Assembly (NCBI GenBank): GCA_000934665.2
Contig: KZ538942.1
Span: 1 to 39,265, forward strand
Source: Catajapyx aquilonaris
Lineage: Eukaryota
Reading direction: 5' to 3'
DNA: 39,265 bases
Part shown: one piece after another, positions 9,858 through 39,265 of the stretch
How positions within the stretch are numbered: position 1 is the stretch's first letter
Layout of the letters: each line of letters opens with the position of its first letter
Notes under the pieces: generated by a model
What the model saw: the letters and a program-made list of their open reading frames with translations, nothing else
Database searches by the model: none
Told to the model about the DNA's origin: nothing
Translations under genes and position numbers: made by a program

Positions 9858-11257
9858 GGAGATGACAAGGTACAATCATAATCCTATGGATTTGTGGGTT
9901 GGTAAGGGTTAGCAAACTATCATCCTCTCTTGTTATAGGAACACAGCAATCATGGATGTGTAAGCAGTGGTGTCATGGAGTGGGAAAAACTTAATATCTG
10001 CCCATTTACACTGGTCTCTTGAATGACCTATTTGCATTGTGAGATTTGGATTGTTATTTTTATTTTTTCCAACTTGTATAGCTAATTTGGAAATTTCTGG
10101 AAGTGCAATTATTTTAGGGTGGTGAAGCTGTAGCAAGCAAAATTGTAAAATATACTTATATTTGTGCATTAGTGTGCAGGCATATTCCGAAGGATTTCTG
10201 CCCACAAAGTGAAGGGGGGGGGGGGGGGGNATTTAATGGCTCTTTTTTCCTCCTCAAAAGTTTCCAAAAAAATAATTAGATGGATATATGATATATACTA
10301 GGATATAATTCTCTTTTACATTTTTTATTTTCCAGCCATATTTCTACGTGTTTCTAACATTTTCCCTCGTTTAAATTCATGCACTGTGTCACTGCTCATG
10401 GTTGTTACATGTGGGAAACTTCTTTTTCAGAATTTCATGTAGGAATGTAGTTGGTTTTGTATACTGTGACTGTAATTTTAGTGAATGGAGGGAACTGGAC
10501 GACAAGGAAATATTTCCTTTGTGGGCAAAATGCAACAGCATATTGTATACAGCTTGTAAGTTATTTTGCAGTACGTATTTATGTCGAGTCACTTCCAAGG
10601 CATTTCCTAATCTTGTACAAAGGAGTCGTTTTTTCTGAGTATCAACATCATTTTCAGTAGGTGTACATAAGTGTATAATGTTGTGAACAGTACAATTGTA
10701 GCCGTATTGCCATCACAGTCGATGCCATAGGTTACATTTCCCTTTGCTTTTGGCGAAGACATCAGAAAGAGCAGGATGGGTTGGGGCACAAGTTGCTTTG
10801 TCATGGTGTCAATTTTTTAAATTGATGTATTTGTGACTATAGCACGTTGATAAGCCAGTGTATTTAATGTAAACTTGGAAAATGTTAGATAACGGTAATC
10901 TTACACTGCACGGTAAGCTTACTGTAAAAAAACAAGTATTTTGTGTACTTCTGAATCTGTATTTGATCTGAGGTCCAACTGTAATAAATTAAACAGCAGC
11001 TTTTCTTTCTTGCAGTCCTCATTTTCTGCCTTGGCAAAAAAAAAAAAAAAACAAGTTATGACCATAAAGCTATGTAACATGAAAAATGACAAGTGCAGCT
11101 GTTCCATCCTCCCTGTAACTCAGTGGCAGAGCCCATGCTTATGAACCCAGGTTGGATTCCTGGCAGGGATGCTTCATGCAGCTGTCGACGAGCTTGACAT
11201 GTTCTGCTTTTGCAGTATTGCTGTTGGGTGATTGCCTATTCAGATGTAACATGTTGG

Positions 11258-13786: not shown

Positions 13787-14086
13787 CTACATTCCAGGTG
13801 CAGCTCGGCCAAGTCTAGGCAGGTTACAGATCTCGCAGTTGTTGAACTCGGCTTGGTTAAGATACGTGCAGTGTGGGCAGGTCCAGAGGCTTGACTCTGA
13901 TGAATTCCTGCCAGCCACACTCATGTCACTCTCTGAATTTGGGAGGCGGGCAACTACAGGGGATCCTGAGCTGGAGCTAGCTGCAAACAGTTCTTCCACT
14001 GTAGCCCAGTGTTCTCCATTGGACCACTCTCGGGCCATGGCCCCGTTCTTAGAGCGGACTGCCTCCAGGAGGGGGCCCATGTGGTC
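13787..14086 (-). CDS. NPLOC4: NPL4 terminal exon (NZF/RanBP2-type ubiquitin-binding zinc finger)
   Basis: [34 protein letters not shown]...[32 protein letters not shown]. Confidence 0.95.
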   Translation of the reverse strand, partial: DHMGPLLEAVRSKNGAMAREWSNGEHWATVEELFAASSSSGSPVVARLPNSESDMSVAGRNSSESSLWTCPHCTYLNQAEFNNCEICNLPRLGRAAPGM

Positions 14087-17000
14087 CTGGAAAGTTAGTG
14101 TGTGTAAAAAGCCACCCATGATTTTACATTTTCATTATACCTCTCCTCAGCCTAGCAGCAAACAACTATATATTTTTCACATCTCCCATAACCAACAATG
14201 TCATATAGGATTTGTTTCTGTAATTTCTACATTACTCTGATTAATCAAAATTGAGAGGCGGGTAATTTTCTTCTGTCCTCAGAAAAGGAAGTATTTAAGA
14301 GGAATTGTGTTATTTTATAAATACAATATCGTGCCCTCTGGTGCACTGCCCAAGTGTAAAGCTGGGTTGGATGGTTGATAATAAATCCTAAACATGTGGT
14401 GGGCCCTTGTTATTCATTGCTTTTATATTGTTTCGATCAATAAATAATAAGGATCAACAACTTGGTCAAGATTTATTATCAATAATGCGAAGAAGAGGAC
14501 AGGGGAGAAGTTATGGATTGCTAACTCCAAAGAAGCAACAATCACAAGTGGACGTGTCCTTGATTGCTGAGGCAAACAATCCTTAACTTCTTCCCTGGCC
14601 CGCATCCTCTTGACTGCAGTCTTGGACACTGCACCACAAGTTGCACCATCCTGCCGAAACCAGGCATCAACTCTTTGCTTTACTACAATATTTTCTACGA
14701 AGGAATTTCACCTACTGGGAACCTACAGTAGTCTCATAAGTCTTCACCAGAATGCCTTTAAAAATATTAAATCTAAACTCATGTACATGTTTTAAAATAT
14801 GCAATACCAAGGCTAAATACTGGATCTGGTAAGAAACTGTTTATGCAAACTAATGACAAGTCAACAGTTCAACCGGAGCCTTGAGGAACAGGATGGATGC
14901 AAATCCTGGACAAGGTTGTTACAACAGGAGTGGGGAAGAACATCCTGCTGTGCCATGTATAGTATACTCAAATCTTGGATGGGCAGCACCAAACACAGTA
15001 AAACAAATCTGCCTGGATTTGTTTAATAAATATACTAGTTCGGTTTAATCGATACTGATTTTGGGGCACCCTGCTTAAAGTCAGGAATCTTCCAAGAATG
15101 GTTACAAAATGGCATTGTAGAAGGCCCTGGTCACTTGCATGATCATTAATAAATTGACTTTGTTAACAACATGTCCAATATAGCAATATTTGAAACAAGG
15201 AATTACAAGCATCAACCAACTGTTTTGGGTTGACTATTAATCACACAACCCAGTCTAACAGGTTATGTTAGAAGGCCTTTAGCAACTACATTTCGCTGGA
15301 AGTCAGGTAATCTTAAGAAAAAAAAGCGGTTAAAAATGTAATTTTGTATCCTTCAGTTACGATGGACTGCATGATTGATAGTAAATCCAGAACAAGTGGA
15401 TGATCTTTGTTATTCATTAATGGTTTTTTATTACTGGAGGTATATTGACTGGCTTTTAAGGGTGACTGGGTAGTGTACAGTAGAGAAGAGCATCTTACTA
15501 CTGATATCTCCCTTGGTATTCCAGAGAACATTCAACCTTTCCATCTTCATCTTTTTGCTCCCGATGGTACATGGGCATGAAATGATCGGGGATACAAAAC
15601 TGTAGGGGATGGGGCTGGCAACCATGGGGTCACTAAACTAGAGTGTGTAGGTGCCAAAACTCCTGCCCTATTGTGAGAGCATGTTATGCCACTGCTAGTG
15701 GACAGAGTATGTAATGGCACTGTCCTTGAATTAGATGGTATAAAGTAATGGGAACCTGGCAAGCACACACAAACACCCACACAAAATGGAATGACATAAG
15801 AACTATTGGAGCATTTAAGTAACTGAATTGTCTGCTGCTATTTTTTATACCTTCCAGCCTCTAATTCTCTCTCTCCTTCCTACATCTTCATCTACATAAC
15901 CCTCACAGTGCATGGTGTGGGTATGGGCCACTTGTATAGGCACACCATGCTCAAATTTGAGTTAAACATTTGAGTTCATGCCTGTTTGCTGTCTCACAGA
16001 AACACTAACATTACACTAACATACCTTCATGGGCAGCATGTCCATCCCAGCAATGTAGATCAGAAAATGGAAGTCTGAAGCTGCTTTAAGGAACTGCTCT
16101 GGTGTGAACTGCCGCATGTAAGCATGCAGTGCTGTGAAATCTTGGATGTGGCCGTCAACAAACCTGAAACCATAGAAAGAATCAAGTGTGTGGAAAAAAC
16201 CATCTTGTATGCTTATGCTCACCTGTTCTCCACTGGAAAGCTCCGGATCTTATCATTAGCAAAGAAGGTGTGTTGTGGATCCAGGGGTGTCGAAACAGGC
16301 ACATCAATGAGAAGGTACTCCACTGGGAGAGGTCGTGCTAGCTTTGTCACTTCATTTCCGTATGCATCTTTTTTCTGCAAGAAAAATAGCAATTATAATG
16401 ATCAGCCCATATATTAATTAGTGTAAACAGGGTAACACCTAACAAAACAGAAGTAGTTTTTCTGACGGTCTCTGATATATTTTAGCAGTTTATAGTGACA
16501 TACATTCCCATACGCTTCTGTGAAGTAGTGTGAATATTCCACAGATATTTGAGTTAACAGTTTCAGTAAACACAGGGTGTTCCAAATATATCAGTGCTAC
16601 TTTTGGTTATAGAGAATTTCGCTGGAAGCTGTGATTTTTTGTAGCTTGTTGCCCCCCATTCCGCTAATGAGGCATCAGGAAAAGGGCGCAACAAGCTACA
16701 CCCAAATAACTACTTCGAGCGATATTAGCGATAACTAAAACGACCCACGAACTAGGAACACCCTGTATAATAGATATAGAACGTCTCCCTATCATGACAT
16801 TCTCTTACCACCAGCCCTTGTGACTTGTGTTCGAACCCGCGCCACACGTATTTCTAAGCCTGCCTGTCTTACGACTGCGCAGTTTTGCGGATGGCAACCG
16901 TCCTTTGTCGACTTGCCCGTAACGCCGCTCAAGGACGCGGCGGCAGAGGTGTGAAGCACAACCAGTAGAACACAGTCGTCTTGGAACCCCCCTACACTGT

Positions 17001-20090: not shown

Positions 20091-20130
<40 letters not shown>

Positions 20131-23100
20131 CCCCCCCCCAAAAAAAAGGGCCCAAGGTCCTATCACAGGTAAAACAGACAATCAAATACTTGCCAATCTT
20201 TGAGCATAACTTTTCCTTTTGATAAACCATTTGTGTACTTTCACTGCCAGTTCATTTTGGTTTATTTTCAAGGAGGTTTGCAACTACCAAAGATGTGAAG
20301 AAATGACATTTTGTAATTGTACAGGATGCCACAAAGTCAAATGTTTTGGTAAAAATAATATGTATATTCCTGAATTAAATTGGCCATCTTATTGCAAGGT
20401 GCTTGGGCTCCCATGTATTTGCAGGAGGTCTGTGTGACATCACAAGAGTGAACCTCTAGATGGGATTGTACATGAGATTTCTGCCAATACTGGCCTTAGC
20501 CTATTTAATGATAGCTGATTTTTTTCTCTGGTTGGTTATGGTGGTCAAATGTCACATGAACCTGGTTGCTGTTGTAAGGGATTGCTTCCTCTTTACAAAC
20601 TTTACAGGCTAGCGGCAATAACAAAAGAAATGAACATCGTTGTTTTTCTCCAGGGCATCAACCCAGATATCGTACTGGCGCTGGACCAGCTCACCAAGTG
20701 TCATTTCTGCAAGAACCGCTTCAATGAAACAGATCTCCTACCAAAATTCCTGAGCTGTAAGCATTACTTCTGCCTGGCTTGCATTAGGAATGAATTTCTA
20801 CGAGGAAGTGAAGTCTACTGTGTCAGCTGCTGGAACCGTACTTCTGTGCAAGAAGACGGACCTGACTCACTGGAAACCCACACATCCTTGCTCATCTTGG
20901 TACAAAACCTGCACCATTTTCACATGGTTGCATCAACTTCAGCAGGATTTGAACCGCCAGGTCTGGGGCCTCGAGTTAAGGAAAACTGCGCAATTCATGG
21001 GATGCCTCAGGTGTCTTGGTGTTCTTATTGCCAGGAGGGTCTGTGTCATGTCTGTGCACAGGAGCATACAACTAACATGGGCCATCCCCTCAAGTCCTTG
21101 AAGGACATCAAAGAACATATGTCAAACCAGTTGCAAGCTGAAGCTAACAACATTGGCAAGATGGTCAATGAGATCATACGCCTGGAGGGCAAGCAGCAAG
21201 ATTTTCTTCTGAAAGTTAGTATTGAGGTGTTTTTCATACATTTCCCTAATGATGTAGTTACACACGAAGAATTTACTCCTCAAGATTGTGACAGGTAAAT
21301 AGTAATACCATTGCACTTTTCCAGGTTTTGGAAGCGTGCACTACACTTAAACATGACATTGAGTCAGAACTGAAGAACGGCAATCAAAGCATTTCAGAAG
21401 CCCATGAGGTGCATGACCTAATGGGTAATGCTAGACGTGGCTTTATGACGATGGAAGGCCCATCTAGTTTCCTGCTGGCTAATGTCACTGTTGCTGCTCG
21501 GAAGAAAAAGCTGCAGGCTCGATACCAGAAGCTTCTGCTACAAAGTCAGATGGATGACGTAATATCCAACAGCAGCGTGATTGTGGACTTCACAGCAGTC
21601 AAGCATGCCGTGCAGTCAACAAGTCAAACCAAGAACCTGCCAATGTACATGAACAATGGAAATCCATTGAGTGATCCCATCCTTTTTCTGACCAACTACT
21701 GCCTCTCGCGACTGTACCCTCGCCACGTGATGACTGAGTGGCACTCACAACAGAATGGGAACTTTTCTGATATGTTGGCATCCCTACCATCTGCTACGAA
21801 CCTACTCTCCTTACAGCAGCCAACTCAAGGGTCCTCCCAATCATACACTCCCTTGCCACTTCCCAAGCCCCACCACTTCCTGACCCAGCAGGAGAAAATC
21901 ATTGCCCCGCCCAGTAATTCCATGCCACGTGGTCCTCTCCATCCCAAGTTCTTTTTCAACATTGAAATCAATGGAGTGGATGTGGGCCGCATTGTAATTG
22001 AAGCCCGTCCTGATTGTGCACCGAAGATGGTGGAGAACTTCGAGTCACTCAGTACATGTGAGAGGGGGATAGGATACAAAGGATGCTCAATCTTCCAGTG
22101 CTGGAAGGGGGAGTCACTTATCACTGGTGATTTTGAGTACAACAATGGTCGTGGTGGATACAGTGTCTTTGATGAGCCCTACTTCATGCCAGATGATACC
22201 AAGATGCCTGCAGTTCGTGGGGCTGTTGGAATGAGACGCACCCAAAAGCGCCACGACAACAAAGGTCTAGTGGGTTCACAGTTCCGGATCATTCTACAGG
22301 ACATGCCAGGTTTTACAGCCATATTTGGCCATGTCATTGAAGGTCTAGAAATGATGGACAAGCTGTCGCAGTGTGGTGACAATGCAGGAACACCCACAAA
22401 GTTGATATCCATTGCCCACTGCGGGAAGCTGTGAGGCACCAATCTTAAGTTCATAATTATTCGGAATAAGTCAATCTTTAGTCCCTATTCAGAGTGAATG
22501 TGGACATACTTTAGGCGTACGGGTAACACTAAATGCAACGAGCTGTCCCCCAAAGATAAAGCCAACCCTGCGGTTTTAGGCAAACTAGTTATTTTTGTGG
22601 TTTATTCATCTCAGTTCCAATGAAGACTGCCTCTTCATGCCTGGATTCACTGATCCCTGCCCCAAGATTTAACGTGCAATTGCTAGGAGTGAATAAATGT
22701 TAGGTTGCATTTTAAACCTGAGGCTAATCAGGTGATGCATCAGAGATGTTAAAAACCTTCACTTTGCAAGCTGTACAAGTGCCTTCTGAATCCTGTGCAA
22801 GGGACACAATCCCAAGTGTCAGTATGCAGTGATTGCAATTGTATTAAGTCTTCCCAGTAAACATGTTAAGTCTTGGGGACAAGTAAATCAGTGCACCAAA
22901 TTGGCAAATAGAGACATTCAGGATCCGAGAGAGCTTCTTCATCCTTTTTTGTTGCATTTTAAAATGTATAACGGAAAGAATTCTTGAGTTTTGAAAAGAA
23001 AAATTATTTCATGCTGATTTTTATTTTTAAAAGTGTTTTGATTCTAATGCACAAGGACTTGGGCCCAGTCGAGTTAAGACATAGCTGTAACCTAAAAGTA

Positions 23101-29100: not shown

Positions 29101-32100
29101 AGGTCCTGCCTTTCAAGTCCGTTATAACTGAGGCTGTTATATCTGGAATGAACTGTATAATGGGTGTCCAGTGAAAAAATTAATATGCAAATTCACCTAG
29201 ATGTTGTACTGCAAATGAGACTTAATATCTATTCAGTGTGCTCAGAATTAAGCTCATATCCGTATTGATAGATATGTTGCGGATACTCCTGCATCATGTT
29301 GGTACTCTTAATCCTGAATGCAACCGGCAAAGGATCTTTTCCAGGATTGTTTTTTTTCTCAATCTGACAAAATCTTTTGTGGAAGCTGTTCATAACAATG
29401 GCAGATGAAAAAGTGAACGTCAGTTTTGTTCTATAGATTTGAATTTCGCAAAAATTCGCCTTTCAAATTCTCAGATTTGCCATTTTTCTGCTGTCAAATC
29501 ATGACAGGAGGTACAAGAAAGGAAAATAATTTCAATTTTAATTTTTTCAAGCAATGTAGATTGTGACTGATTTTTTTCAGTTGACAATTGTTTATTAAAA
29601 TTGGAACTAATTATGTTAATGTGTCCAAAATCATACCCTCCCATTGTAGATTACCCCTTTTGAACCTGGATAATCAAATCATTCATGTCAGTCAATCTCT
29701 CATTCAGCAAGCAATTGGCATTTCGAAAAATCAGTCCCAATCTACGATTGCTCAAGAAAATTAAAAGAATTCTTTAACATTTCTTGAGCTTCCAGTTGTG
29801 ATTTTAAAGTGGAAAAATATTACAAAATTGAGAATGGGAAATGCTGCCTTTTGTAAAACCAGGCATTTTTACAACAAAACTGAGTTTCACTTTTTCATCT
29901 GGCGCATCCAGAAAGTTAGTTCCATTTCTTATTAGAAAAGCTGCAAAGCACACCCAGAATGTTTATTATGTACACCTGAAAGGTTCAACTGTCTACTTTT
30001 TTCAACATAGCTTCCCACCAAATTGATGCATTTGTCATCGAGTTACAGAAGATTTTGCATGCCTATGTTGTGGAAGTTTGCCGCCAGCCATTTCCCCGCT
30101 GGACTCCTCGTCATTGTCAAACCTCCGCTTTGCATGTCATTTCTTCGTGTCCATGGACAGGTGGTAATCGCTAGGTGCTAAGTCCCGGTTCTAAGGAGAG
30201 TGATCGAACAATTCTCACTTGAATTGTTGTGGAAGGTATCTAGTACGTACGGCAGTATGCGGGCAGGCATTGTTGTGCAAGAAAACACTCCGGAACTCAA
30301 CATGTTGCTACGTTTCTTTTGAATGGTCATTTTAACATCGGTAAAGTCTCACAATAAACCTTTGGATTGAAAAAAACATAGCGACATAATGAGTTTCGGG
30401 GTGTTTTTCTTGCGTGACAATGCCCGCCTGCATACTGCTGTGCGTACTGGATCCCTGCCGCAACAATTCAAGCGAGAATTGTTCGATCACTCTCTTTAGA
30501 ACTGGGACTTAGCACCTAGCAATTACCACCTCTCCATGGACATGAAGAAATGACATGCAAAGCAGAGGTTTGACAATGACGAGGAGTTGCAGTCCAGCAG
30601 GGAAATGGCTGGCGACAAACTTCAATGACATATGCATACAAAATCTTCTGTAACTCATGACAAATGCATCAATTTGGCTGGAAACTATGTTGACAAAAAG
30701 TAGACAGTTGAACCTTTGTTTCAGATGTATGTGATAAACATTCTGGGTGTGCTGGGGTAGGTCTCTGTATGCCAAGTACTTACAACAGTGAAGTTGTAAT
30801 CTCATAATTTCTCACAAGCCAACATCAACGACTGTGTGTAATTGAGAAAAATAAATACATTGTAGAGAGCAATAAGTCAGTCTTTAAATATCCTGCCACA
30901 TTGGCTGTTAATGATCTGTACACTCATCATAACATATGGCTCAGTTCTGAGAACAGTGGCTGTTCCTGAAGAGAGTAGAAAGGCACATGTCAGGTTAAGC
31001 AAGACACCCCAGTACACTTGTTTTAGTTAATATATCTGAACTGCTTGGTTCCAACATGGCACTTCCTGAGAAGCTCACGGACTTGAAAATAACCGTGTGC
31101 TGCTAACTTTTTCATGAGATTGCAAGTGAGACGATCAGAGTGCACCTGCCTGGGCAGGTTAGTAACTCTCCAAGACTCCATACAGCCAGAAATTTGCATT
31201 AGGTAATAACACTACTTGAAATAACAGTCATCAATTTTAGTGACATCCACACACACGTAAACCTCAGGTTATTTTTTGATGGAATGTATATTAAAATACC
31301 CATCAATACTGCTTTAGCCATGTCATTGTTTTTCGATAGCATATAAATATTCTGGGACCGGGCTCATTGCAGCTCTCTAAACAGCAGCAGCATTGCAAGA
31401 CTTGCTACTAACCTTGTAATAGACATCAGGCACATACTGCTTCTCTGTTGATTCACGTACAAATCCAAGCTCCGGTGCATCTTTGGTGGGAATTAGGCAG
31501 TTGTCCCGAACCAAGGCCATGCACTGGTTTGAAACCTGATATCCTTCCATATGCACTTGATTTGATGCATCACCTAGGAACAAATGACCATTATAGTGAT
31601 AGCTCCCATGCTAACCTATCCAGTTCCTAACTTTGTCTTGAAAATAATATGACTAAGGCTAAAGTTGCCAACATAAGTATCTTCCCATACTTAAGGGGGC
31701 ATGCCCACAGGAGGCAATAATAATGCCACAACCAGCTGCTGATTTCAGCAGTGCTGTTGCTGAGCTGAAGTGTGCACACAAGAGATAACTCAACACTTTC
31801 TCTAATGGAGGGCTGGATTCACAAACTGATTCTTATTATTATTATAGTTGCGGCACCCGGCGTTGCCCGGGAAGAAATGAATGAAGGGAAAACACCTACA
31901 TGTAGCCAAGTCAAAAATTTTCACGCACAGAGCCGATGCACAGAGAGTCGCCATGACACTTTTGGGAAGGGTGGGTCGGAAGGATGGGAGAGGTTTGAGG
32001 TGTAGGAGGCGGTTCACAGATGACGGTTGGCATCCCAGACAGAATCACATCCGTCTTTATTGATATAGATTTTGCTGTCCTTTGGAAAAATGTCACATCT

Positions 32101-35100
32101 ACACACAGCTACAAAGTCAAGTTTCTAGGCAGCCCACCTAAAAACTCAATCTTACTGTTATGTGCAGATGCAACATTTTTCAAAATGACAGAAGTATTGT
32201 TATTCATTGCTGCTATATAAATTTTGCAACAAATCACCTAAACTGTCCATTCTGCTGGTGAATCCATATCCTGGTATGATTAATTGTGGGTGATTGTGCC
32301 TGTCTTGATGCACACACGAATGTACACAGCACAATTATTATGCATGTGCAGTGACATCACTGAGGTCCAGTTACATTATTGAGAGTAACTACAAAACATG
32401 TATGACATTTTATTCCTAATTTGTTTGGATCAGCCATTTGTCTTGCAGCAGGCTGCTTCTGCTTAAAGTTTGCATAAATTTGGCAAGGCCATAAGGTGTA
32501 ACAAAAATTAATTTGACGCATTTTAAAATCTATTAACCCAGATATGCCTGAAAGATTTTTTGTTTAAATTTTTGTTTTTGTTTGATTTTATTAGTTCATG
32601 ATAGTCCCCAAAACACAACAAAAATGATTAAAAAATTTATGGAATGCTAGATTGTAAGAAAAGTGCCGTCCCCTATAGGGGACACTCGGCAAATGTACCC
32701 TTTAGTATGGCTATACTGTAGCCTACAAGGAAAACGTAAGATATAGGCTGCTGTATTGAAATAAAGATGAAAGTGTTTTTTTAATTAATTGAAAAATATA
32801 GAGAAGGAATGTTATAGCTAAGACCCAGTGTCCTATATATAGGACATCTAAATTTGCAATATAAGTGATTGCAACAAAAATATGAAATTCTGAAAAATGG
32901 CTTCTACACCTCCACTACAGAAGGTTCTTTCAAAGTATTTTACTAAATAATTGCACAAATGGCTTCTTGGGTCTCAGGAGGGTTTAGCGGAAACTTGCTC
33001 ATTGCGGAATTTTAGAGTCACTTGCTAGTCAGATATGTACAGGTTGTTCGCTGTATATAAATATACAGTGAACCCTGTCCACAACGGACCCTGTGTATAA
33101 TGGAAACTTACCTATTGCAGAATTTTTCTGGTAACTGGTGTATGAAAATTACACAATTTCCGCTATATTCGACGCGGAAATCGTGTACTTTCCATACGCC
33201 CGTTACCAGAAAAATTCCGCAATAGGCAAGTTTCGGTTATGTTCAGGGTCCGTTATGGACAGGATTCACTCTAGATAAATATGTAGTGAAACCTGTCCAC
33301 AACATACCCTGAGTGTTACAAAAACTTGTCCATTGCGAAATTTTTCCGGGAACGGGCGTATGTATAGGACATAAATACCGTGTCAAATATAGCGGAAACG
33401 GCTGATACACTGTACTATGTATATCCGACATCGAATGGTTCGCGCGCGATCCGCAACAACAGCGCCACTTTTTTTCCTCCCCCACTCTCTGCCCACAATG
33501 CTTTGCGCCGTTGCAGCGTTCACTTCCACTCGTCTTTCCCGTTTGGTGCTGATGACTAGGAAAATCGTAATTTTCAGCGGAAACTTGTCAATTACGATTT
33601 TTCTAGGGCACCGTGCTATTCTGCTATACACAGGTTTCNNNNNNNNNNNNNNNNNNNNNNNNNNNNNNNNNNNNNNNNNNNNNNNNNNNNNNNNNNNNNN
33701 NNNNNNNNNNNNNNNNNNNNNNNNNNNNNNNNNNNNNNNNNNNNNNNNNNNNNNNNNNNNNNNNACCCCCCCCCCCCCCCCCCCCCCGCAATTAGATCCG
33801 CCACTGGGCTTCACTGTACCCAAAAGAGAAAGTTTGTATGCATGATAATGTTTGATTGTACATGGCAATGGATTACCAGCATAGCTATGATGGTTGCCAT
33901 GGTAACCCAGTTGCCGGGTAACCCTTGTTTTAAAAATAGGGATTCATAAAAATTCAGTTCGACAAAACGCACGAAATCCGGATGCATACAGTAGCCTAGA
34001 GTACCGGTGCTTGACTTGCCGGTCCATTTGTGGTGCATTTGCCGAGTGTCCCTCATAGGGGACACCCGATTTCAACGCCACCCTCAGACAAGGAAAGTAA
34101 AAAATATGCCTATATTTCCACATGGACATCATCATTCATAAGTTTTCTAAGTATTACAAACAAAAAATAACTCATAATGCTAATCAACATTCGAGAATTA
34201 ATTACTAATCGTCTTCGGAACGTGGAGGTGCAGCCATTATTTCCTGCGTTAAAATTCAAACACCTGTATCTTAAAAATCTGAAGCAATATTGAGCAGGTT
34301 TGAACTTGTATTGTTAGCTGGGACTCTACTGAAGCCCCCATCACTGCTGCCAGCTCTTTAGCAGCACAAGAACCTGTGCAAAAAATTAAAATGTAATAAC
34401 TGTGCAGGTGTCCCCTATAGGGCACACTCGGCATATCTGGGTTAAACCCACCAAGCAGAGAGATAGTTGCAATTAAATGGGGCTTCAACTGCTATTATTA
34501 CTCTGAGGACAAACGGGAGCTCTGGGTAGCTACTGCACATGCTAGTCTTAATAATGCATTGACGTAACAATTTACGCAAATAGATCAATAAAAAATATCC
34601 TGCTTGGAACCAATAATAATAAAAAAATTACAGAAATTTTCTGGTGAGGGTGTGCCAATACTGCTGATATTAATGCAGGCCAGTACGATCGAAATTTGCT
34701 AATGTCATGATCTGGTGTTTTGTGCAATTTGAAAAGGCCCTCTGCATCACATAGATGGAAAGTATTAAATCACCCTATTGATAACTTACAAGCACTGCAA
34801 AAAACACACAAAAAGCTTTTACTGCTGCAGGAAAAGAATCGCTAATGTCTGCTTAAATGGCATGAAAAATATTACTGTGGGAATTTCAGTTTGAAAAGAA
34901 ATGCAGTTATGGTTCTCCCAATCTACCATTTCTACATATGCAACTGTGTTACACTTTTGTCACACTGCATAGAAATAGGGCCATGAAATATGACTCCTCC
35001 CAGCAGAGGCCAAGGCCTTGTTCTTCCCTACACAATTTAACCCTGGAACCGTGCCGTGCCTACAAGTATTACGGCAACCGTGCCATGGGGTTTTTTCGGA

Positions 35101-38100
35101 CCCAACCATATTTTAATTTTTATTAAGTATTATATTATACTTTTCAATGTATTGAGTATATACAATAATTCTTTGAACAATGCCTAAAAGGATCGCTAAT
35201 TCAAAATAAACCTCCACTTCCTGTTATATACTGTAAAAAAATGGCAGAAGTTCGTTGTAATGATCATTTTAATGCATTTTTTTTCCTTGGGATCCAAAAA
35301 GACCCCACGGCACGGTTCCAGGGTTAAATATTCATCCTTCCTATTATTGTATGTGTTATGGACAATATATGATATGAACACCCTAATAGGAAAGGGGTCA
35401 AATGACATAAAATCTGTGTGAATTATATACGGTTATGACACTTTCTTATGCAGGGGCCATAGAAAGAACAATGAAACCGTATAAACTCGCAGGGACGTTG
35501 CCATACCATCGTCCCCGCGAGTTTATACGACGGTATGGCAACGTCCCCGCGAGTTTATACAGTTCCATTGTTTGGTGAACATGTGGGGGATGTCAACATG
35601 GCAACGCCTAGCAACACGCCGTGTATGGTAGCGATATGGTAGTGTTTGAACTTCCCGGGCGGATGTGACGTCACGATTTGGCCCAAACTTTGGAGGCCTC
35701 GTGAACCCTAACCAGGCCTCGTAGAGCAATATGACCTTCACTTCCATATACTGGTTTTTCACAAGGAATCTCGCTACCCTGTATACAGGATTTGTTGTAT
35801 GCACTCCCACACCCGTGGACCTGGGCTTTGCGTCGTAAAACCAGTGTACTGATTATGAAAGCACTAAATAAAGGTCAGCACTACCCAAATTATTATAATT
35901 ATACTGGGGGCATTAAAAGGTTCTGATCACCACCAGAGGTTTGGTGCAAATGATAAAATAATTCTTTATGAAATTCGCAGTTCACAATACTTCTTTCCAA
36001 AACATATGGCACCCCTTAGAGAGATGGTTTGGTTGGCAACTGTACTACTACCGAACTTACCTGTCACACAAACTGTGACAAATTTCGATCCAAAGGAGCC
36101 AGTTGGGGACAAGCTGCAGGGATTGCAATGCTGGTTTTGAAAGTAGCCTGCCATTATACATTCCTGAGCTGTCAAGAAGTAGCTGTCAATATTTCTCAGA
36201 TGCTTGACCTAAAGGCAAAAAAGTAGTTCTTCATTTGGTCCAAGAATCCTTATGTGCATACGTCAGTTCTGTTAAAAGGCAAATCACACCTACTGCCTTG
36301 TCCAAGTGCAAGCTAATGCAATAACTGATGGTGATAAGAAGCTTGCCAAGACCTGTAGTTATTACGTCATGCATTTAACATAAAATACGCGGGTTGATTC
36401 ATAAGTCATGGTGCGTATTTTTTTATTCAAAGACAGTAGCACATACAGAGCTGACCTTTGCTGAGTTTTGAAGCTCCGGCAATTACAATTTGATCTGGCA
36501 TATAGATGTCGCCCATATCGAGAGGGAGGCAGGGAAACAAAAGGGGATCATGACCCCCCCACCGCACCATCGCCATAAGAAGGCCCGAGCCTGATGCACT
36601 TGGAGGAGTTGGACGATGCTGGCTGGACACTCGGAGATGGACAACATGGGAGCTTGCTTTCAAGTGTGGGACAAGTCAAGAGCAGTCTGCTTAGGACTCT
36701 GAAAGACTGAAGGGTCTCAGGAAGTTGGCATCCTCACTGGTTCCTCACCATCTCTTTGAGGTGCAAAAGAGCTGCCATTTTGCCTTCGCTTGGAACTCGA
36801 TCGCATTGAGGGCGATGGTTTTTTCAAACGGTTTGTGGCGATGGATGACACATGGCTCCGGTCACAGGGCTCTGACTTGTCCCACACTCGAAAGCAAGCT
36901 CCAGTGTTGTCCATGACCAAGTGTCCAGCATGCAGCGTCCAACAGCTCCCAGCGTGTCAGGCTCGGGCCTTCTTAGGGCGATGGTGCAGTGGGGGGGTCA
37001 TGATCCCCTTTCGGTTCCCTGCCTCCCTCGTGATATGGGTGACATCTCTATGCCAGATCAAATTGTAATCGCTGGAGATTCAAAATTCAGCAAAGGTCAT
37101 ACCGTTTTTGAATAATAAAATACACGCCATGACAACACCAAGTCCCACTGAGCCTCTAATCGCTCTCACATATCGCGGTGGGTGAGACCTGCCTTTTAAT
37201 GCTGGATCCAGTACACTGTATTAAAGCACTCACAGTTCCTTTCACAACATCGTCTGCAACTAGGTCCGTAAATATCCAGCCTACTTCGGTAAGTCCTAGT
37301 TTCTGAGCAATGTTCTGCACCAAATCCTTCTTTTCGTCCTTCAGTAGTCTAATAGAATCCCTTGTGCTCTCCTGAAAAAAGGCATCCAGTAATGGTTATT
37401 TCAACCAAGCAGCATGCTGAAATAAATGATGAGCTCAAAATACCTGAGGTGGTTCATAGATGGCTGCAACAGTTGCTCGAATGCCAAGAGGCACATCATT
37501 GTGCACCTCATATCGACCGAAAAGGAATCCAATTCTCTGATGGCCAGTGGACCTCCAGTAATTCAGAAACCTTTCAACCAAGTTGGGGTTCTCAAACATA
37601 ACATTGTCAACATGGCGATAATTCTGCAAAAAAATTAAAAAATCAAATTTGTAGATCAGCATAGTGTGTGTTCCAAGTTTGGGATCCTTTTACATATCAC
37701 AAATTTCACCACAAGTTGTTAATTTTCTGTAGCTTTTTGCCTCCAGATCAAGGTACCCAATTATTCCCGGGTGGGGTAGAATACAGCAGCTGCTACATAA
37801 TTGGGCACCTTGATCGGGGCGCAAAGAGATACACGATAGTAACAATTTCGGAGAAATTTGTGATAGGACCCCAATACTTGTAACACATTGTATATACGAA
37901 TACATGTACCAACATCTACCAACCTGCTGATTGAGTGTAATTGCATTTGGCTGGCACTTGGTGCAAATTCCAAGAGGCCAGGGAAGATGATCCTTGCAGC
38001 CAGCACGGATTTGACAGCTAATGTCCTCTAATGCCACAAACTTGCCTCTGCAGTAGAGAAGCAAAAAATTTCACAATGACTTATTCTGAAAATGTGCTTG

Positions 38101-38265
38101 CAAAGTATGTACACCATTAAAACTAACCTGTCCATTCCTCCTGTCAGCTTTCTTAGGTAGGAATGGAAAGACATATGCTTAATGTTTTGTTCCCTTAGGT
38201 ACTGTTCATCATACGGCTCAAGAGGAGAGCAATGAAAGCAACAGCCATTAGGTCCATGGCGACAG
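13787..38265 (-). CDS. NPLOC4: Nuclear protein localization protein 4 homolog (p97/Cdc48-Ufd1 cofactor), 5'-partial, 9 coding exons in the window
   Basis: Exons (-): 38128-38265, 37924-38047, 37444-37623, 37234-37371, 36061-36208, 31413-31573, 16223-16374, 16025-16163, 13787-14086, all GT-AG and phase-consistent. Zn-finger motifs [12 protein letters not shown] and [17 protein letters not shown]-like core ([43 protein letters not shown]) and C-terminal [13 protein letters not shown]...CEIC. The N-terminal UBX-like exons are not in the window. Confidence 0.96.
14480..14680 (-). pseudogene. Possible highly decayed Tc1/mariner-superfamily transposase fragment
   Basis: The minus strand reads [12 protein letters not shown] (around 14636-14671), resembling the WFQQDGA motif around the second catalytic Asp; the rest is degraded. 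Confidence 0.35.
16025..16163 (-). CDS. NPLOC4: NPL4 exon
   Basis: [46 protein letters not shown]; 59-bp upstream intron. Confidence 0.94.
16223..16374 (-). CDS. NPLOC4: NPL4 exon
   Basis: [50 protein letters not shown]; read manually. Confidence 0.95.
16573..16765. mobile_element. Small Tc1/mariner-type MITE
   Basis: CAGGGTGTTCC ... GGAACACCCTG|TA; internal pair TGTAGCTTGTTGC / GCAACAAGCTACA. Confidence 0.8.
16830..17211 (+). promoter_or_regulatory. CpG-rich patch, candidate promoter / 5' UTR of the nested TRIM-cyclophilin gene
   Basis: Visibly many CG dinucleotides (CCGCGCC, GTCGAC, GACGCGGCGG) in an otherwise CpG-poor intron, directly upstream of a candidate ATG micro-exon. Confidence 0.4.
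17212..17226 (+). CDS. Candidate first coding micro-exon (MTTQE) of the TRIM-cyclophilin gene
   Basis: aatcATG context (A at -3); ATG ACT ACT CAA GAG|gtgggt is a phase-0 donor compatible with the phase-0 acceptor at 20653. Confidence 0.45.
17539..18070. mobile_element. Non-autonomous element with terminal inverted repeats of about 65 bp
   Basis: AGTTACA..TGGTGGAATTTTTGTATTTTTCATTAGCAGT..GACTTAG versus CTAAGTCACTGCTAATGAAAAACACAAAAATTCCACCA..TGTAACT; no clear TSD. Confidence 0.7.
19282..19460. mobile_element. hAT (Charlie-like) MITE
   Basis: CAGCATTTCTCAACC ... GGTTGAGAAAGTTG ends; 8-bp TSD GATGGAAG (19274-19281) / GATGAAAG (19461-19468). Confidence 0.8.
19948..20175 (+). mobile_element. tRNA-derived SINE (third family) containing a (CT)n microsatellite
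   Basis: A box TGGTCTAGTGG (19959-19969), B box GGTTCAAATCC (20003-20013), (CT)n at 20094-20128, 3' TATCACAGGTAAAA; no convincing TSD. Confidence 0.65.
20654..21214 (+). CDS. TRIM-cyclophilin exon: RING + B-box + start of coiled coil
   Basis: gtttttctccag| acceptor; 187 codons [20 protein letters not shown]...KQQDFLLK. Confidence 0.9.
20654..22434 (+). CDS. TRIM-cyclophilin fusion protein (C3HC4 RING, B-box 2, coiled coil, Q/P/S-rich linker, cyclophilin-like domain), nested antisense in an NPL4 intron
   Basis: Exons 20654-21214 and 21325-22434 are joined in frame by a 110-bp GT-AG intron (AAA|gttagt...ttttccag|GTT). [21 protein letters not shown] (20699-20830); B-box [23 protein letters not shown] (20987-21085); cyclophilin [58 protein letters not shown] (21940-22431). 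At least 556 aa; start exon uncertain. Confidence 0.92.
21325..22434 (+). CDS. TRIM-cyclophilin terminal exon: coiled coil, linker, cyclophilin-like domain
   Basis: 369 codons plus TGA; matches ORF-track 21328-22434. Confidence 0.93.
   Translation, partial: VLEACTTLKHDIESELKNGNQSISEAHEVHDLMGNARRGFMTMEGPSSFLLANVTVAARKKKLQARYQKLLLQSQMDDVISNSSVIVDFTAVKHAVQSTSQTKNLPMYMNNGNPLSDPILFLTNYCLSRLYPRHVMTEWHSQQNGNFSDMLASLPSATNLLSLQQPTQGSSQSYTPLPLPKPHHFLTQQEKIIAPPSNSMPRGPLHPKFFFNIEINGVDVGRIVIEARPDCAPKMVENFESLSTCERGIGYKGCSIFQCWKGESLITGDFEYNNGRGGYSVFDEPYFMPDDTKMPAVRGAVGMRRTQKRHDNKGLVGSQFRIILQDMPGFTAIFGHVIEGLEMMDKLSQCGDNAGTPTKLISIAHCGKL
24890..25800 (-). pseudogene. Decayed mariner transposase relic interrupted by SINE-derived sequence
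   Basis: Minus strand 25538-25790 gives [48 protein letters not shown] (N-terminal HTH region). 24890-25160 gives [38 protein letters not shown] (C-terminus). Frameshifts and stops throughout. 25462-25520 resembles the SINE at 7333-7392. Confidence 0.7.
26683..27938. mobile_element. pogo/Tigger-type MITE split by a nested foldback element
   Basis: TA|CACTCTACTCCCAATTATTC ... GGATAATCAGTAGTAGTG|TA; repeated GATTATC subterminal motifs at both ends. Confidence 0.65.
26803..27734. mobile_element. Tc1-like foldback element, inverted arms of about 360 bp
   Basis: TA|CTTTCCCAAAC..TATTTGACCACCCC ... GGGGTGGCCGAATAATTATGGGTTTGGGCAAG|TA; arms about 26803-27160 and 27375-27734 pair over long stretches (e.g. 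CTGGACTTTAGAATTGATAATTATGAATAGTAACAATTGAGCT). Confidence 0.9.
28402..29155. mobile_element. pogo/Tigger-derived non-autonomous element with CENP-B-type HTH remnant
   Basis: CAGTCAACTCTGGATATAAC ... GTTATATCTGGAATGAACTG|TA; minus strand near 28620-28710 reads [26 protein letters not shown], resembling a Tigger transposase N-terminus. Confidence 0.7.
29402..29901. mobile_element. Old, degenerate foldback MITE
   Basis: CAGATGAAAAAGTGAACGTCAGTTTTGTT / AACAAAACTGAGTTTCACTTTTTCATCTG; inner pair near 29536-29577 and 29726-29766. Confidence 0.65.
29947..30753. mobile_element. Palindromic mariner relic: two inverted copies of the transposase 3' half
   Basis: Arms about 29947-30320 and 30370-30753. 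The right arm translates [52 protein letters not shown] (D34D spacing; the left arm has APSDY). Confidence 0.9.
31413..31573 (-). CDS. NPLOC4: NPL4 exon
   Basis: [53 protein letters not shown]; followed by the 15,038-bp intron. Confidence 0.96.
31844..32069 (-). mobile_element. Short Helitron-like element
   Basis: On -, it starts A|TCTATATCAATAAAG, has the GC hairpin CCCGGGCAACGCCGGG near the 3' end, and ends CTAT (a CTRR variant); no TSD. Confidence 0.55.
33066..33271. mobile_element. Near-palindromic pogo/Tigger-type MITE
   Basis: TA|CAGTGAACCCTGTCCACAACGGACCCTG ... CAGGGTCCGTTATGGACAGGATTCACTC|TA; related ends at about 32987-33053 and 33284-33638. Confidence 0.85.
33639..33764. other. 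Assembly gap (126 N) followed by a poly-C run
   Basis: N run in the sequence; a single N also occurs at 10230 after poly-G. Confidence 1.
35041..35323. mobile_element. piggyBac-type MITE
   Basis: TTAA|CCCTGGAACCGTGCCGTG ... CACGGCACGGTTCCAGGG|TTAA (18-bp perfect TIR, TTAA TSD). Confidence 0.92.
36061..36208 (-). CDS. NPLOC4: NPL4 exon
   Basis: [50 protein letters not shown]|gtaagt donor. Confidence 0.95.
36388..37133. mobile_element. mariner-derived foldback MITE (copy 2 of the 7637-8407 family, opposite orientation, right tip truncated)
   Basis: Arms homologous to those of copy 1; the spacer on + reads [19 protein letters not shown] and [21 protein letters not shown]. Confidence 0.9.
37234..37371 (-). 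CDS. NPLOC4: NPL4 exon
   Basis: [46 protein letters not shown]; read manually, phase 0-0. Confidence 0.94.
37444..37623 (-). CDS. NPLOC4: NPL4 exon
   Basis: [60 protein letters not shown]. Confidence 0.96.
37674..37880. mobile_element. Small hairpin MITE in an NPL4 intron
   Basis: TATCACAAATTTC / GAAATTTGTGATA and GATCAAGGTACCCAATTAT / ATAATTGGGCACCTTGATC. Confidence 0.75.
37924..38047 (-). CDS. NPLOC4: NPL4 exon (zinc finger 2)
   Basis: [41 protein letters not shown]. Confidence 0.95.
38128..38265 (-). CDS. NPLOC4: NPL4 exon (zinc finger 1)
   Basis: [45 protein letters not shown]; tttgcag| acceptor, AG|gttagt donor. Confidence 0.95.
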
Positions 38266-39134
38266 CTGCAAATAGACAGAGTGGTGTAAAATATGTACAT
38301 ATGTGCTCCAACAGTAATTAGGCCTAAATATGTCTAACCACTCCCTTACTCTCAGCTTAAAATCTGGAAATAACATTACATGAACATATTAATAATCCGT
38401 GGAGGAAGTGGGGGAAGCCATATGGTTTGCAATGTATTTCTCTTACAGTTGTCTCATGTTACAAACACAGCAGGCTACCAAGCCTCCTTACCAACCCTAA
38501 ATGCCAGACTCCTACCCTTTATGTCATATCTGCAGAGGTTAACTTAGTAGTACAAGGGAATATGGCCAAAATGAGATCAGTCAACTGAAACGAAAATGAT
38601 TTCATTCTGGCAAGTCTGGCCATTTCAATTGCTATAAGCCAATTTTGCCAGTGAACGTCAAATTAGCATTATCAATGATGATATCAGGCAGAAAGATTTG
38701 GGATATTTTGTCCTGCCTACTTCGTACAGGAAAGTCACTTTATATGCATAATTTTCAACAGAGGTTGTCAAATGGAACAATGGAATTTGACACTCTTCTT
38801 GCCATTTCTTGACCATAAGGTCTGACCATGAAAAGAGCCATGTGAAAGACAGGAAAAACAAAGTATGGAACTAAAAATGAGTCAGGCAGAACTTTCCCAT
38901 AAGGGAGAAAGATCTGATCATAATATAGTTTTACATGACTCCAACAATGAAGTAGTAAAATCCTGCCAAAGCCTGGCCCCATAACAAGGCAACCATTTGG
39001 ACTTGTTCATATGATGTTTCACCAGCATTGGGAGAAACCCAATATGAGAGAATGGGGGAGCGGAGCTGGGCCAATAGCACATGCATCTGTGTGCCTGGAC
39101 TTTCCAGACTTGACTCACTGTTTTAAATTATTAC

Positions 39135-39215
39135 TAGGAAAACCCTCGCTCCGCTCGTATTTTCCTATGGCGCTGGCCTAGAAAACCGCTCGCTTCGCTC
39201 GCTCTTTTCTAGGCC
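39135..39215. repeat. Tandem pair of related stem-loops (probable terminus of a repetitive element)
   Basis: TAGGAAAA-CCCTCGCTCCGCTCGTA-TTTTCCTA and GGCCTAGAAAA-CCGCTCGCTTCGCTCGCTC-TTTTCTAGGCC. Confidence 0.55.
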
Positions 39216-39265
39216 TGCGGCCTACAGTGCCCACCACATTTTCAATCTCTTCGGACTTATTGCCA

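Follow-up and report, generated by a model that had tools for sequence, protein, structure and literature searches.

A cyclophilin-fold domain with a replaced and conserved active site as the probable ligand receptor of a pancrustacean TRIM-like E3 ligase, described from a gene of Catajapyx aquilonaris

TRIM ubiquitin ligases are defined by the target recognition of their C-terminal domain and, to our knowledge, the only TRIM-cyclophilin fusions that have been studied are the primate TRIMCyp proteins, in which an intact cyclophilin A (CypA) pocket catches retroviral capsids. TRIMCyp is of recent origin and arose by CypA retrotransposition. A cyclophilin domain is also joined to an E3 domain, of the U-box type, in PPIL2. 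Outside the vertebrates, the Drosophila gene CG5071 was listed among seven TRIM genes of the fly as encoding a tripartite motif followed by a cyclophilin, an arrangement described there as convergence with the TRIMCyp of the owl monkey (Sardiello et al. 2008, PMC2533329, as far as its text was available). Here, a gene of the same general architecture is described from Catajapyx aquilonaris (assembly GCA_000934665.2, contig KZ538942.1, positions 1 to 39,265 of the forward strand; this whole stretch of 39,265 nucleotides is called the window, and all coordinates refer to it). The gene occupies 20630-22434 on the plus strand in two exons, with a predicted product of about 564 aa comprising a RING finger, a B-box, a helical region and a C-terminal cyclophilin-fold domain of 164 aa (21940-22431), which ends in ...CGKL, contains no internal stop and is predicted to be catalytically dead. 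The active site of this domain has been replaced, and the replacements recur in its best-matching homologues. Judged from sequence, the domain probably acts as the ligand receptor of a pancrustacean TRIM-like E3 ligase and would have been maintained by selection in that role.

The cyclophilin fold of the domain is secure. Pfam profile PF00160 matched residues 6-162 (profile positions 2-158 of 159) with an E value of 1.2e-19 and 71.6 bits against a cut-off of 21.7, and a phmmer search of the PDB returned CypD (1.9e-23), the TRIM5-CypA fusion 2x83_B (2.9e-21) and CypA (1.1e-20). An AlphaFold2 model of the domain built from 40 sequences had a mean predicted local distance difference test score (pLDDT) of 78 and placed the strands and helices in the cyclophilin order, giving the barrel with two helices that is typical of the fold. 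When this model was compared with known structures by Foldseek, CypA, CypD and TRIMCyp chains were matched with a template modelling score of 0.85 and an identity of 34%, the probability for CypA was 1.00, and no nucleic-acid-binding fold was found among the matches. The ESM Atlas returned generic cyclophilin clusters only (score 0.94), the first of them a giant-virus cluster named 'structural PPIase-like protein L605'.

To place the active site, the domain was aligned to CypD with HMMER, within a MAFFT alignment of 150 representatives that included CypA-type sequences, and pairwise with MAFFT to the CypA-type sequence P0267, whose residues R55, F60, M61, Q63, A101, N102, A103, Q111, F113, W121, L122 and H126 occupy the positions of the site list in PMC12865271. 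The pairwise alignment held 56 identities in 159 aligned positions (35%), and in the PDB phmmer alignment STFHRVIPSFMCQAGDF lies opposite the window's 16-residue stretch. All three alignments concur on the first half of the site, where FQCW stands for CypA H54-R55-I56-I57 (22093-22104), so that the catalytic Arg has become Gln at codon 22096-22098, and E58-S59-L60-I61 stands for F60-M61-C62-Q63 (22111-22122), with the residues of the proline pocket and of backbone binding gone; the pairwise correspondences are H54 to F52, R55 to Q53, I57 to W55, F60 to E58, M61 to S59 and Q63 to I61. In the second half, a basic 100s loop of 10 residues that includes RRTQKRH (22231-22260) is five residues longer than in CypA-type sequences. 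The position of its gap is ambiguous, HMMER and the family alignment giving A101R and N102R and pairwise MAFFT giving A101Q, N102K and A103R. GSQFR then replaces GSQFF (22273-22287), with the Q111 equivalent retained as Q114 and F113 changed to R116, and the 120s segment is shortened to QDMPGFT (22297-22317), with three residues fewer before the FG motif, a gap at W121, and M122 and T126 for L122 and H126. The first-pass annotation, made by eye against human CypA, had proposed H54F, R55Q, F60E, M61S and Q63I, a basic insertion, F113R and a shortened and replaced W121/L122/H126 segment, and each of these was recovered; its A101R and N102R agree with two of the three alignments. Its 164-aa translation was likewise reproduced exactly, and every structural motif that it had listed as retained is present in the domain.

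In other cyclophilins, PPIase activity and cyclosporin binding have been linked to these residues. According to the available text of PMC12865271, Arg55 is directly catalytic and is altered among human cyclophilins only in PPIL4, which is inactive; replacement of Trp121 by Tyr or Glu in PPIL2, PPIL4, PPIL6 and SDCCAG10 is accompanied by loss of both peptidyl-prolyl isomerase (PPIase) activity and cyclosporin binding; and Phe60, Met61, Gln63, Ala101, Phe113, Leu122 and His126 complete the CypA site. In the window's domain the catalytic Arg is Gln53 in all three alignments, the hydrophobic proline pocket is occupied by Glu58, Ser59, Arg116, Met122 and Thr126, and the position of Trp121 (or His) holds a gap or Asp, with Glu in 117 of 121 homologous domains. 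In none of these alignments, whether HMMER, family or pairwise MAFFT, did a catalytic position regain its Arg, Phe, Gln or Trp. As all the listed site residues except the Gln111 equivalent are changed, the domain is predicted to be a dead enzyme, and we infer that it has neither prolyl-isomerase activity nor cyclosporin binding.

With the last exon as query, 236 homologues were recovered at E ≤ 1e-3, and the cyclophilin domains of the best 120 of these 236 were aligned with that of the window. Across the resulting 121 domains, F52, Q53, C54, W55, E58, S59, I61, T62, M98, R99, R100, Q102, D106, G112, S113, Q114, F115, R116, M122, F125 and T126 are invariant. Within the 100s loop K103 and H105 are each present in 120 domains, T101 in 119, and R104 (otherwise Lys) and N107 in 115 each, and at position 121 Glu stands in 117 domains and Asp in the other four, the window's among them. 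Because the same substitutions recur in 121/121 homologous domains, they lie far beyond chance. Invariant columns make up 64 of the 164 in the domain; they account for 11 of the 13 equivalents of the CypA active site and 53 of the 151 positions elsewhere (Fisher p 7e-4), and the two variable site equivalents show only T/S and E/D exchange. The cyclophilin domain is also the best-conserved portion of the protein, for when the window is compared with 36 homologues its identity has a median of 70%, where the helical region reaches 37% and the linker 28%; against all 120 homologues the median for the domain is again 70%. The replacement residues are thus under strong purifying selection. Conservation of FQCW and RRxQKRH had been named at first pass as the check that would separate repurposing from decay, and it came out for repurposing, FQCW and the two arginines being found in 121/121 domains, Q102 in 121/121 and K103 in 120/121.

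The same annotation had described the rebuilt binding face as basic, a description that fits the loop and not the face as a whole. Segment 97-126 is charged +4, where 42 canonical cyclophilins have a median of 0, but acidic residues have been introduced as well (E58 for F60, D/E121 for W121, and D106), and the net charge of the whole domain is close to zero (−1 in the window, with a family median of +2 and a canonical median of +1). Loops 67-85 and 101-111, the two most invariant, have pLDDT values below 50 in the domain model, which may reflect flexibility or merely a shallow alignment.

Full-length homologues among the best 120 of 236 measure about 520-650 aa, and most carry both PF00643 and PF00160. 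Among the named members are proteins of Odonata, Hemiptera, Hymenoptera, Coleoptera, Orthoptera, Phasmida, Neuroptera, Phthiraptera and other groups, and also of the springtail Orchesella, the copepod Tigriopus californicus, Artemia franciscana, Musca and several species of Drosophila. When 1.84 billion representatives were scanned, 46 matched at E ≤ 1e-30. In two trees the window clade is monophyletic, lying on one side of a branch with a Shimodaira-Hasegawa-like approximate likelihood ratio test (SH-aLRT) value of 99 in both: tree 1 (127 domains, LG+G4) contains 40 representatives of the clade, and tree 2 (63 domains, posterior mean site frequency mixture model, quick search) contains 22. 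The clade includes the Drosophila proteins P0159, P0163 and P0164, with which the window shares the signature F-Q-x-W ... GSQFR, and stands apart from 25 canonical-type representatives. Since it spans these pancrustacean lineages, the fusion and the dead site predate their split, the age of which is several hundred million years. The signature varies between lineages, reading FQAW ... GMRRGQRRQ ... GSQFRLV, also with ES.ITGDFE, in Drosophila and FFQAW.NESVICGDWE ... GMRRMSKKH ... ASQFRII in the copepod Tigriopus. In muscid flies (P0158 from Musca autumnalis, and P0161) FQ[CA]W has become FKCY or FECH and the 120s segment is shortened further; in this lineage the constraint on the face is relaxed or altered.

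Two neighbouring groups also carry altered sites. A paralogue clade with RING and cyclophilin (P0191 from Bacillus rossius, P0201/P0328 from Periplaneta americana, P0190, P0205 and P0214) is found in insects alongside the window-type gene; its R55 position still holds Arg or Lys, F60, Q63 and F113 are lost, and the motif is F[KR]A/V...GSQF[HM]IW. In a sister clade an RNA-recognition motif (RRM) precedes RING and cyclophilin (P0219 from Oratosquilla oratoria, 897 aa; P0263, 1114 aa; P0202, 887 aa), with the non-canonical site FF[KR]S-G.G...GSQFMIW, and this architecture was not met in the literature on the subject, as far as its text was available. The window clade together with the RING-cyclophilin groups is separated from the 25 canonical-type domains with SH-aLRT values of 87 (tree 2) and 79 (tree 1), which suggests a single origin for the window clade and its sister groups. 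The RING/B-box/cyclophilin protein P0192 of Cherax branches with the canonical set. Many members of a copepod-type subgroup (P0168, P0175-P0185, P0188, P0199) lose the homology after ...SSLNQV, where unrelated sequence takes over; the pattern looks like that of gene models that read past a conserved splice site into an intron. Database names assigned automatically to family members include 'Peptidyl-prolyl cis-trans isomerase F, mitochondrial', 'PPIF', 'Peptidylprolyl isomerase', 'TRIM13', 'TRIM37' and 'bromodomain-containing protein', none of which fits the sequence evidence.

The modules preceding the cyclophilin domain resemble those of a TRIM (RBCC) protein. The C3HC4 RING finger (20696-20830, spacing C-x2-C-x15-C-x-H-x2-C-x2-C-x12-C-x2-C) has its complete set of zinc ligands; zf-C3HC4 matched it with an E value of 5e-4 and 20.3 bits against a cut-off of 21, and five Pfam RING models in all matched at E 5e-4 to 0.03, each below its own cut-off. 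The B-box zinc finger (20981-21100) was matched by PF00643 with E 9e-5 and 23.0 bits (cut-off 24.1), a profile that exceeds its cut-off in the relatives P0148 (26.3) and P0145 (27.9) and is annotated in advance on most full-length homologues. The zinc-ligand Cys and His residues of these modules are intact, and they are at least 90% conserved in alignments of 40 and 37 sequences. The best solved matches of the first exon in the PDB were to the RING/B-box regions of TRIM3 (4.8e-5), TRIM2 (1e-4) and TRIM32 (2.5e-4), the TRIM3 alignment covering RING and B-box together (query 19-173). Searches of NCBIfam gave no match for the last exon and only a sub-threshold rad18 RING match for the first. A helical, coiled-coil-like region follows (21325-21627), modelled by AlphaFold2 as helices 2-17, 22-42, 46-81 and 89-101 of the last exon with pLDDT values of 54-81 over residues 2-101. 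Between it and the cyclophilin domain lies a conserved linker motif, NP..(D)PILFL.NYC.S.LY..H (21661-21726), in which 37 sequences agree without exception on P118, F121, L122, N124, Y125 and C126; its median identity is 59%, compared with 28% for the linker overall, it is predicted as a helix (118-143, pLDDT about 50), and it has no Pfam match.

The gene itself is intact, with an open frame, canonical splice sites and a junction matched by P0004, the closest homologue among the matches listed (552 aa). The first coding exon (20630-21214) has 195 codons from the ATG at 20630 and encodes the N-terminus, the RING, the B-box and the start of the helical region; it is collinear with P0004 from residue 8, at 77% identity over 190 aa (BLASTP). 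After a phase 0 intron of 110 nt (21215-21324, donor GTTAGT, acceptor ttccag), the last exon (21325-22434) encodes the helical region, the linker and the cyclophilin domain, is collinear with P0004 at 75% identity, and closes with a TGA stop codon (22432-22434) directly after ...CGKL. P0004 runs without a break across the splice junction ...DFLLK|VLEAC... (residues 192/193). A strong acceptor-like site, ttgtttttctccag (20640-20653), ends at 20653, eight codons past the proposed ATG, which makes the start codon at 20630 provisional; P0004 has a different 6-residue leader, and an upstream exon may supply the true N-terminus. The sequence AATAAA at 22692-22697 may serve as poly(A) signal, and some 500 bp upstream of the ATG lies a (CT)17 microsatellite followed by C11 and A8 runs (20094-20147).

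Compared with the described systems, the closest in architecture is CG5071, whose tripartite motif and cyclophilin are matched by the Drosophila proteins of 654-681 aa in the window clade (P0159 from D. sechellia/simulans, P0163 and P0164), although these are longer than the window protein and more diverged (about 50% domain identity). Their species, length and architecture make it very likely that P0159 and its relatives in Drosophila represent CG5071. The available text of PMC2533329 makes no statement on the active site of CG5071, and elsewhere in the literature, as far as its text was available, the gene is only listed, as an RNA interference stock, in a RING survey and, among genes enriched in the antenna, under the name 'cyclophilin family peptidylprolyl isomerase'; it is in no title or abstract of the papers that name it. 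Among open-access titles and the beginnings of abstracts, only Sardiello et al. 2008 was found for a TRIM-linked cyclophilin outside vertebrates, and the main texts, as available, of PMC2447506 on the PPIase repertoire and PMC3739738 on aphid cyclophilins contain no mention of a B-box, RING, zinc finger or TRIM. The TRIM-cyclophilin architecture was therefore already known, and the systematic loss and subsequent freezing of the site appear to be absent from the open-access literature searched, within the portions available.

Primate TRIMCyp resembles the window protein in placing a cyclophilin as target-recognition module after the RING, the B-box and the coiled coil, but its active site is intact and binds a retroviral capsid loop and cyclosporin (titles of 4dga and 4dgc, both among the fold matches), so that the contrast with TRIMCyp drawn at first pass holds; the window family is an old fusion, present in insects, a springtail, a branchiopod and a copepod, in which the pocket has been abolished. 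PPIL4, PPIL2, PPIL6 and SDCCAG10/CWC27 share with the domain a cyclophilin fold in which Arg55 and/or Trp121 is replaced, with loss of PPIase activity and cyclosporin binding in the human proteins (PMC12865271, in its available text) and a predicted loss in the domain, and they are binding modules within larger proteins, as is proposed for the window domain; these human isoforms change one to few residues, whereas here essentially the whole site is changed and the loop is longer. CypA/PPIA and CypD/PPIF are the best sequence matches and have the same barrel and helices, but differ from the window domain in possessing the catalytic and cyclosporin-binding residues and in lacking its 5-residue insertion, its 3-residue deletion before the FG motif and its RING fusion.

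The domain has kept the cyclophilin beta-barrel, and the catalytic Arg, the proline pocket (F60, M61, F113, L122, H126) and the cyclosporin-binding Trp have been exchanged for a fixed set of polar and charged residues (Q53, W55, E58, S59, I61, R99, R100, R116, E/D121 and T126) together with the longer basic loop. In the mechanism that we propose by analogy with other TRIM proteins, the RING would recruit an E2, the helical region would dimerise and the C-terminal domain would pick the target. The rebuilt face would bind one conserved ligand other than a prolyl peptide and deliver it to the RING for ubiquitylation, much as a SPRY or CypA domain does in other TRIMs. It is plausible that Glu58 and Arg116, which replace two stacked phenylalanines of that pocket, pair and fill it, and that a new surface would then be formed by the lengthened RRTQKRH loop together with the NNGRGG(R/Y)S loop, which is invariant. 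RNA, a protein motif or a group that is acidic or phosphorylated would be candidate ligands; the first-pass suggestion of an acidic peptide or nucleic acid is speculation. A more specific version, in which the pocket has become a mixed-charge floor (E58, R116, E/D121) under the mobile basic loop RRTQKRH and reads a non-proline mark such as a phospho/acidic motif or an RNA element, is put forward only tentatively.

Other explanations of the frozen face were weighed against that of a ligand receptor. The face could instead make a structural or regulatory contact inside the ligase, with the coiled coil, the linker helix or a higher-order assembly, the domain serving as a scaffold. A co-evolving internal interface would give the same long-lasting strict invariance, and the linker motif, with P118, F121, L122, N124, Y125 and C126 invariant and a helix predicted, would offer a partner; but in the last-exon model the linker helix has a pLDDT of about 50, residues 130-202 fall below 50 and no sign of packing is seen, and other TRIMs use the C-terminal domain as their target-binding module. 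On these grounds the explanation was considered rather unlikely. A complex prediction of the cyclophilin domain (last-exon 204-369) with the helical/linker segment 60-146 gave ipSAE values of 0.02 and 0.02 against a mark of 0.34, with the fold of the partner uncertain and the supplied alignments unused, and speaks neither for nor against such a contact. A special case of the receptor reading, in which the ligand is RNA or another polyanion and the ligase is RNA-directed, draws on the RRTQKRH loop with R116 and the +4 charge of segment 97-126, and takes a weak hint from the RRM at the N-terminus of the sister clade (P0219, P0263, P0202). Set against it are the near neutrality of the whole domain, the acidic E58, D106 and D/E121 introduced into the same face, the absence of an RRM from six clade proteins scanned and from the window's own exons, and the lack of a nucleic-acid-binding fold match, and it was held to be improbable.

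That the domain is still a prolyl isomerase or proline-peptide binder, through a relocated Arg (R99, R100 or R116) and a remodelled pocket, would be consistent with the retained Q111 equivalent and barrel and with three new arginines in segments lining the old site. With the hydrophobics of the proline pocket turned polar or charged (F60E, M61S, F113R, H126T), W121 lost, and human cyclophilins with far fewer changes inactive (PMC12865271, available text), this is very unlikely. Decay of a cyclophilin fusion into a relic with no function of its own might be read from the loss of all catalytic residues taken alone, but is hardly credible when 64/164 columns are invariant in 121 sequences, the substituted residues being the most invariant of all, when the domain is better conserved than the remaining protein and when the reading frame has stayed open in the window as in hundreds of species; the reading as a decaying domain or pseudogene was accordingly rejected on the conservation of the substituted residues and of the domain. 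Of the pseudo-enzyme substrate receptor proposed by the first-pass annotation, the loss of catalytic and cyclosporin-binding residues and the exclusion of decay thus stand, and loss of activity is what those residues predict. Several points nevertheless weigh against a ligand receptor without activity. The loss of activity is deduced from residues alone, and one of the arginines R99, R100 and R116 might in principle extend to where the catalytic one used to be; the face may make an intramolecular or an oligomeric contact rather than bind a substrate; and with the low pLDDT of both loops its modelled shape and electrostatics are provisional. In addition, the gene is known from DNA alone, the public run listing for the organism consisting of one DNA-type run, its RING and B-box scores fall slightly short of the Pfam cut-offs, the identity of P0159 with CG5071 rests on architecture and species with no tool-given name, and muscid flies have changed the signature, so that it is not absolutely fixed.

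A homologue of NPL4 (NPLOC4) lies on the minus strand of the window (13790-38333) in at least nine coding pieces, found by a Pfam search of 130 minus-strand frames of at least 45 aa from which nine frames overlapping 20.9-22.5 kb were left out. The zf-NPL4 domain matched at 38031-38333, 37693-38070 and 37438-37689; NPL4 profile positions 31-79, 78-128 and 127-181 matched at 37159-37395, 35969-36208 and 31380-31610, and positions 177-228 and 227-274 at 16222-16392 and 16019-16249; a RanBP2-type zinc finger at 13790-14131 had an E value of 2e-4, below the cut-off. As NPL4 pieces flank it at 16392 and 31380, the TRIM-cyclophilin gene, which runs in the other direction, is nested within an intron of NPL4 that measures about 15 kb. 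Elsewhere in the window there is a run of 126 N at 33639-33764 (an assembly gap or masked stretch), a single N at 10230, and a 44-bp unit tandemly duplicated at 39138-39224 (two copies, 80% match).

An old and widespread arthropod TRIM in which the cyclophilin pocket was replaced and then frozen points to a conserved ligand and a new use of the cyclophilin fold. Many members of the family are called isomerases by automatic annotation although their sequences predict no such activity, which calls for caution with such names, and through the uncharacterised Drosophila member, very likely CG5071, the reading is open to direct tests in the fly. If the domain is indeed a receptor, it would represent a previously unrecognised class of TRIM receptor domain and, taken with the RING-cyclophilin and RRM-RING-cyclophilin clades, the family would be part of an arthropod radiation of E3 ligases built on dead cyclophilins.

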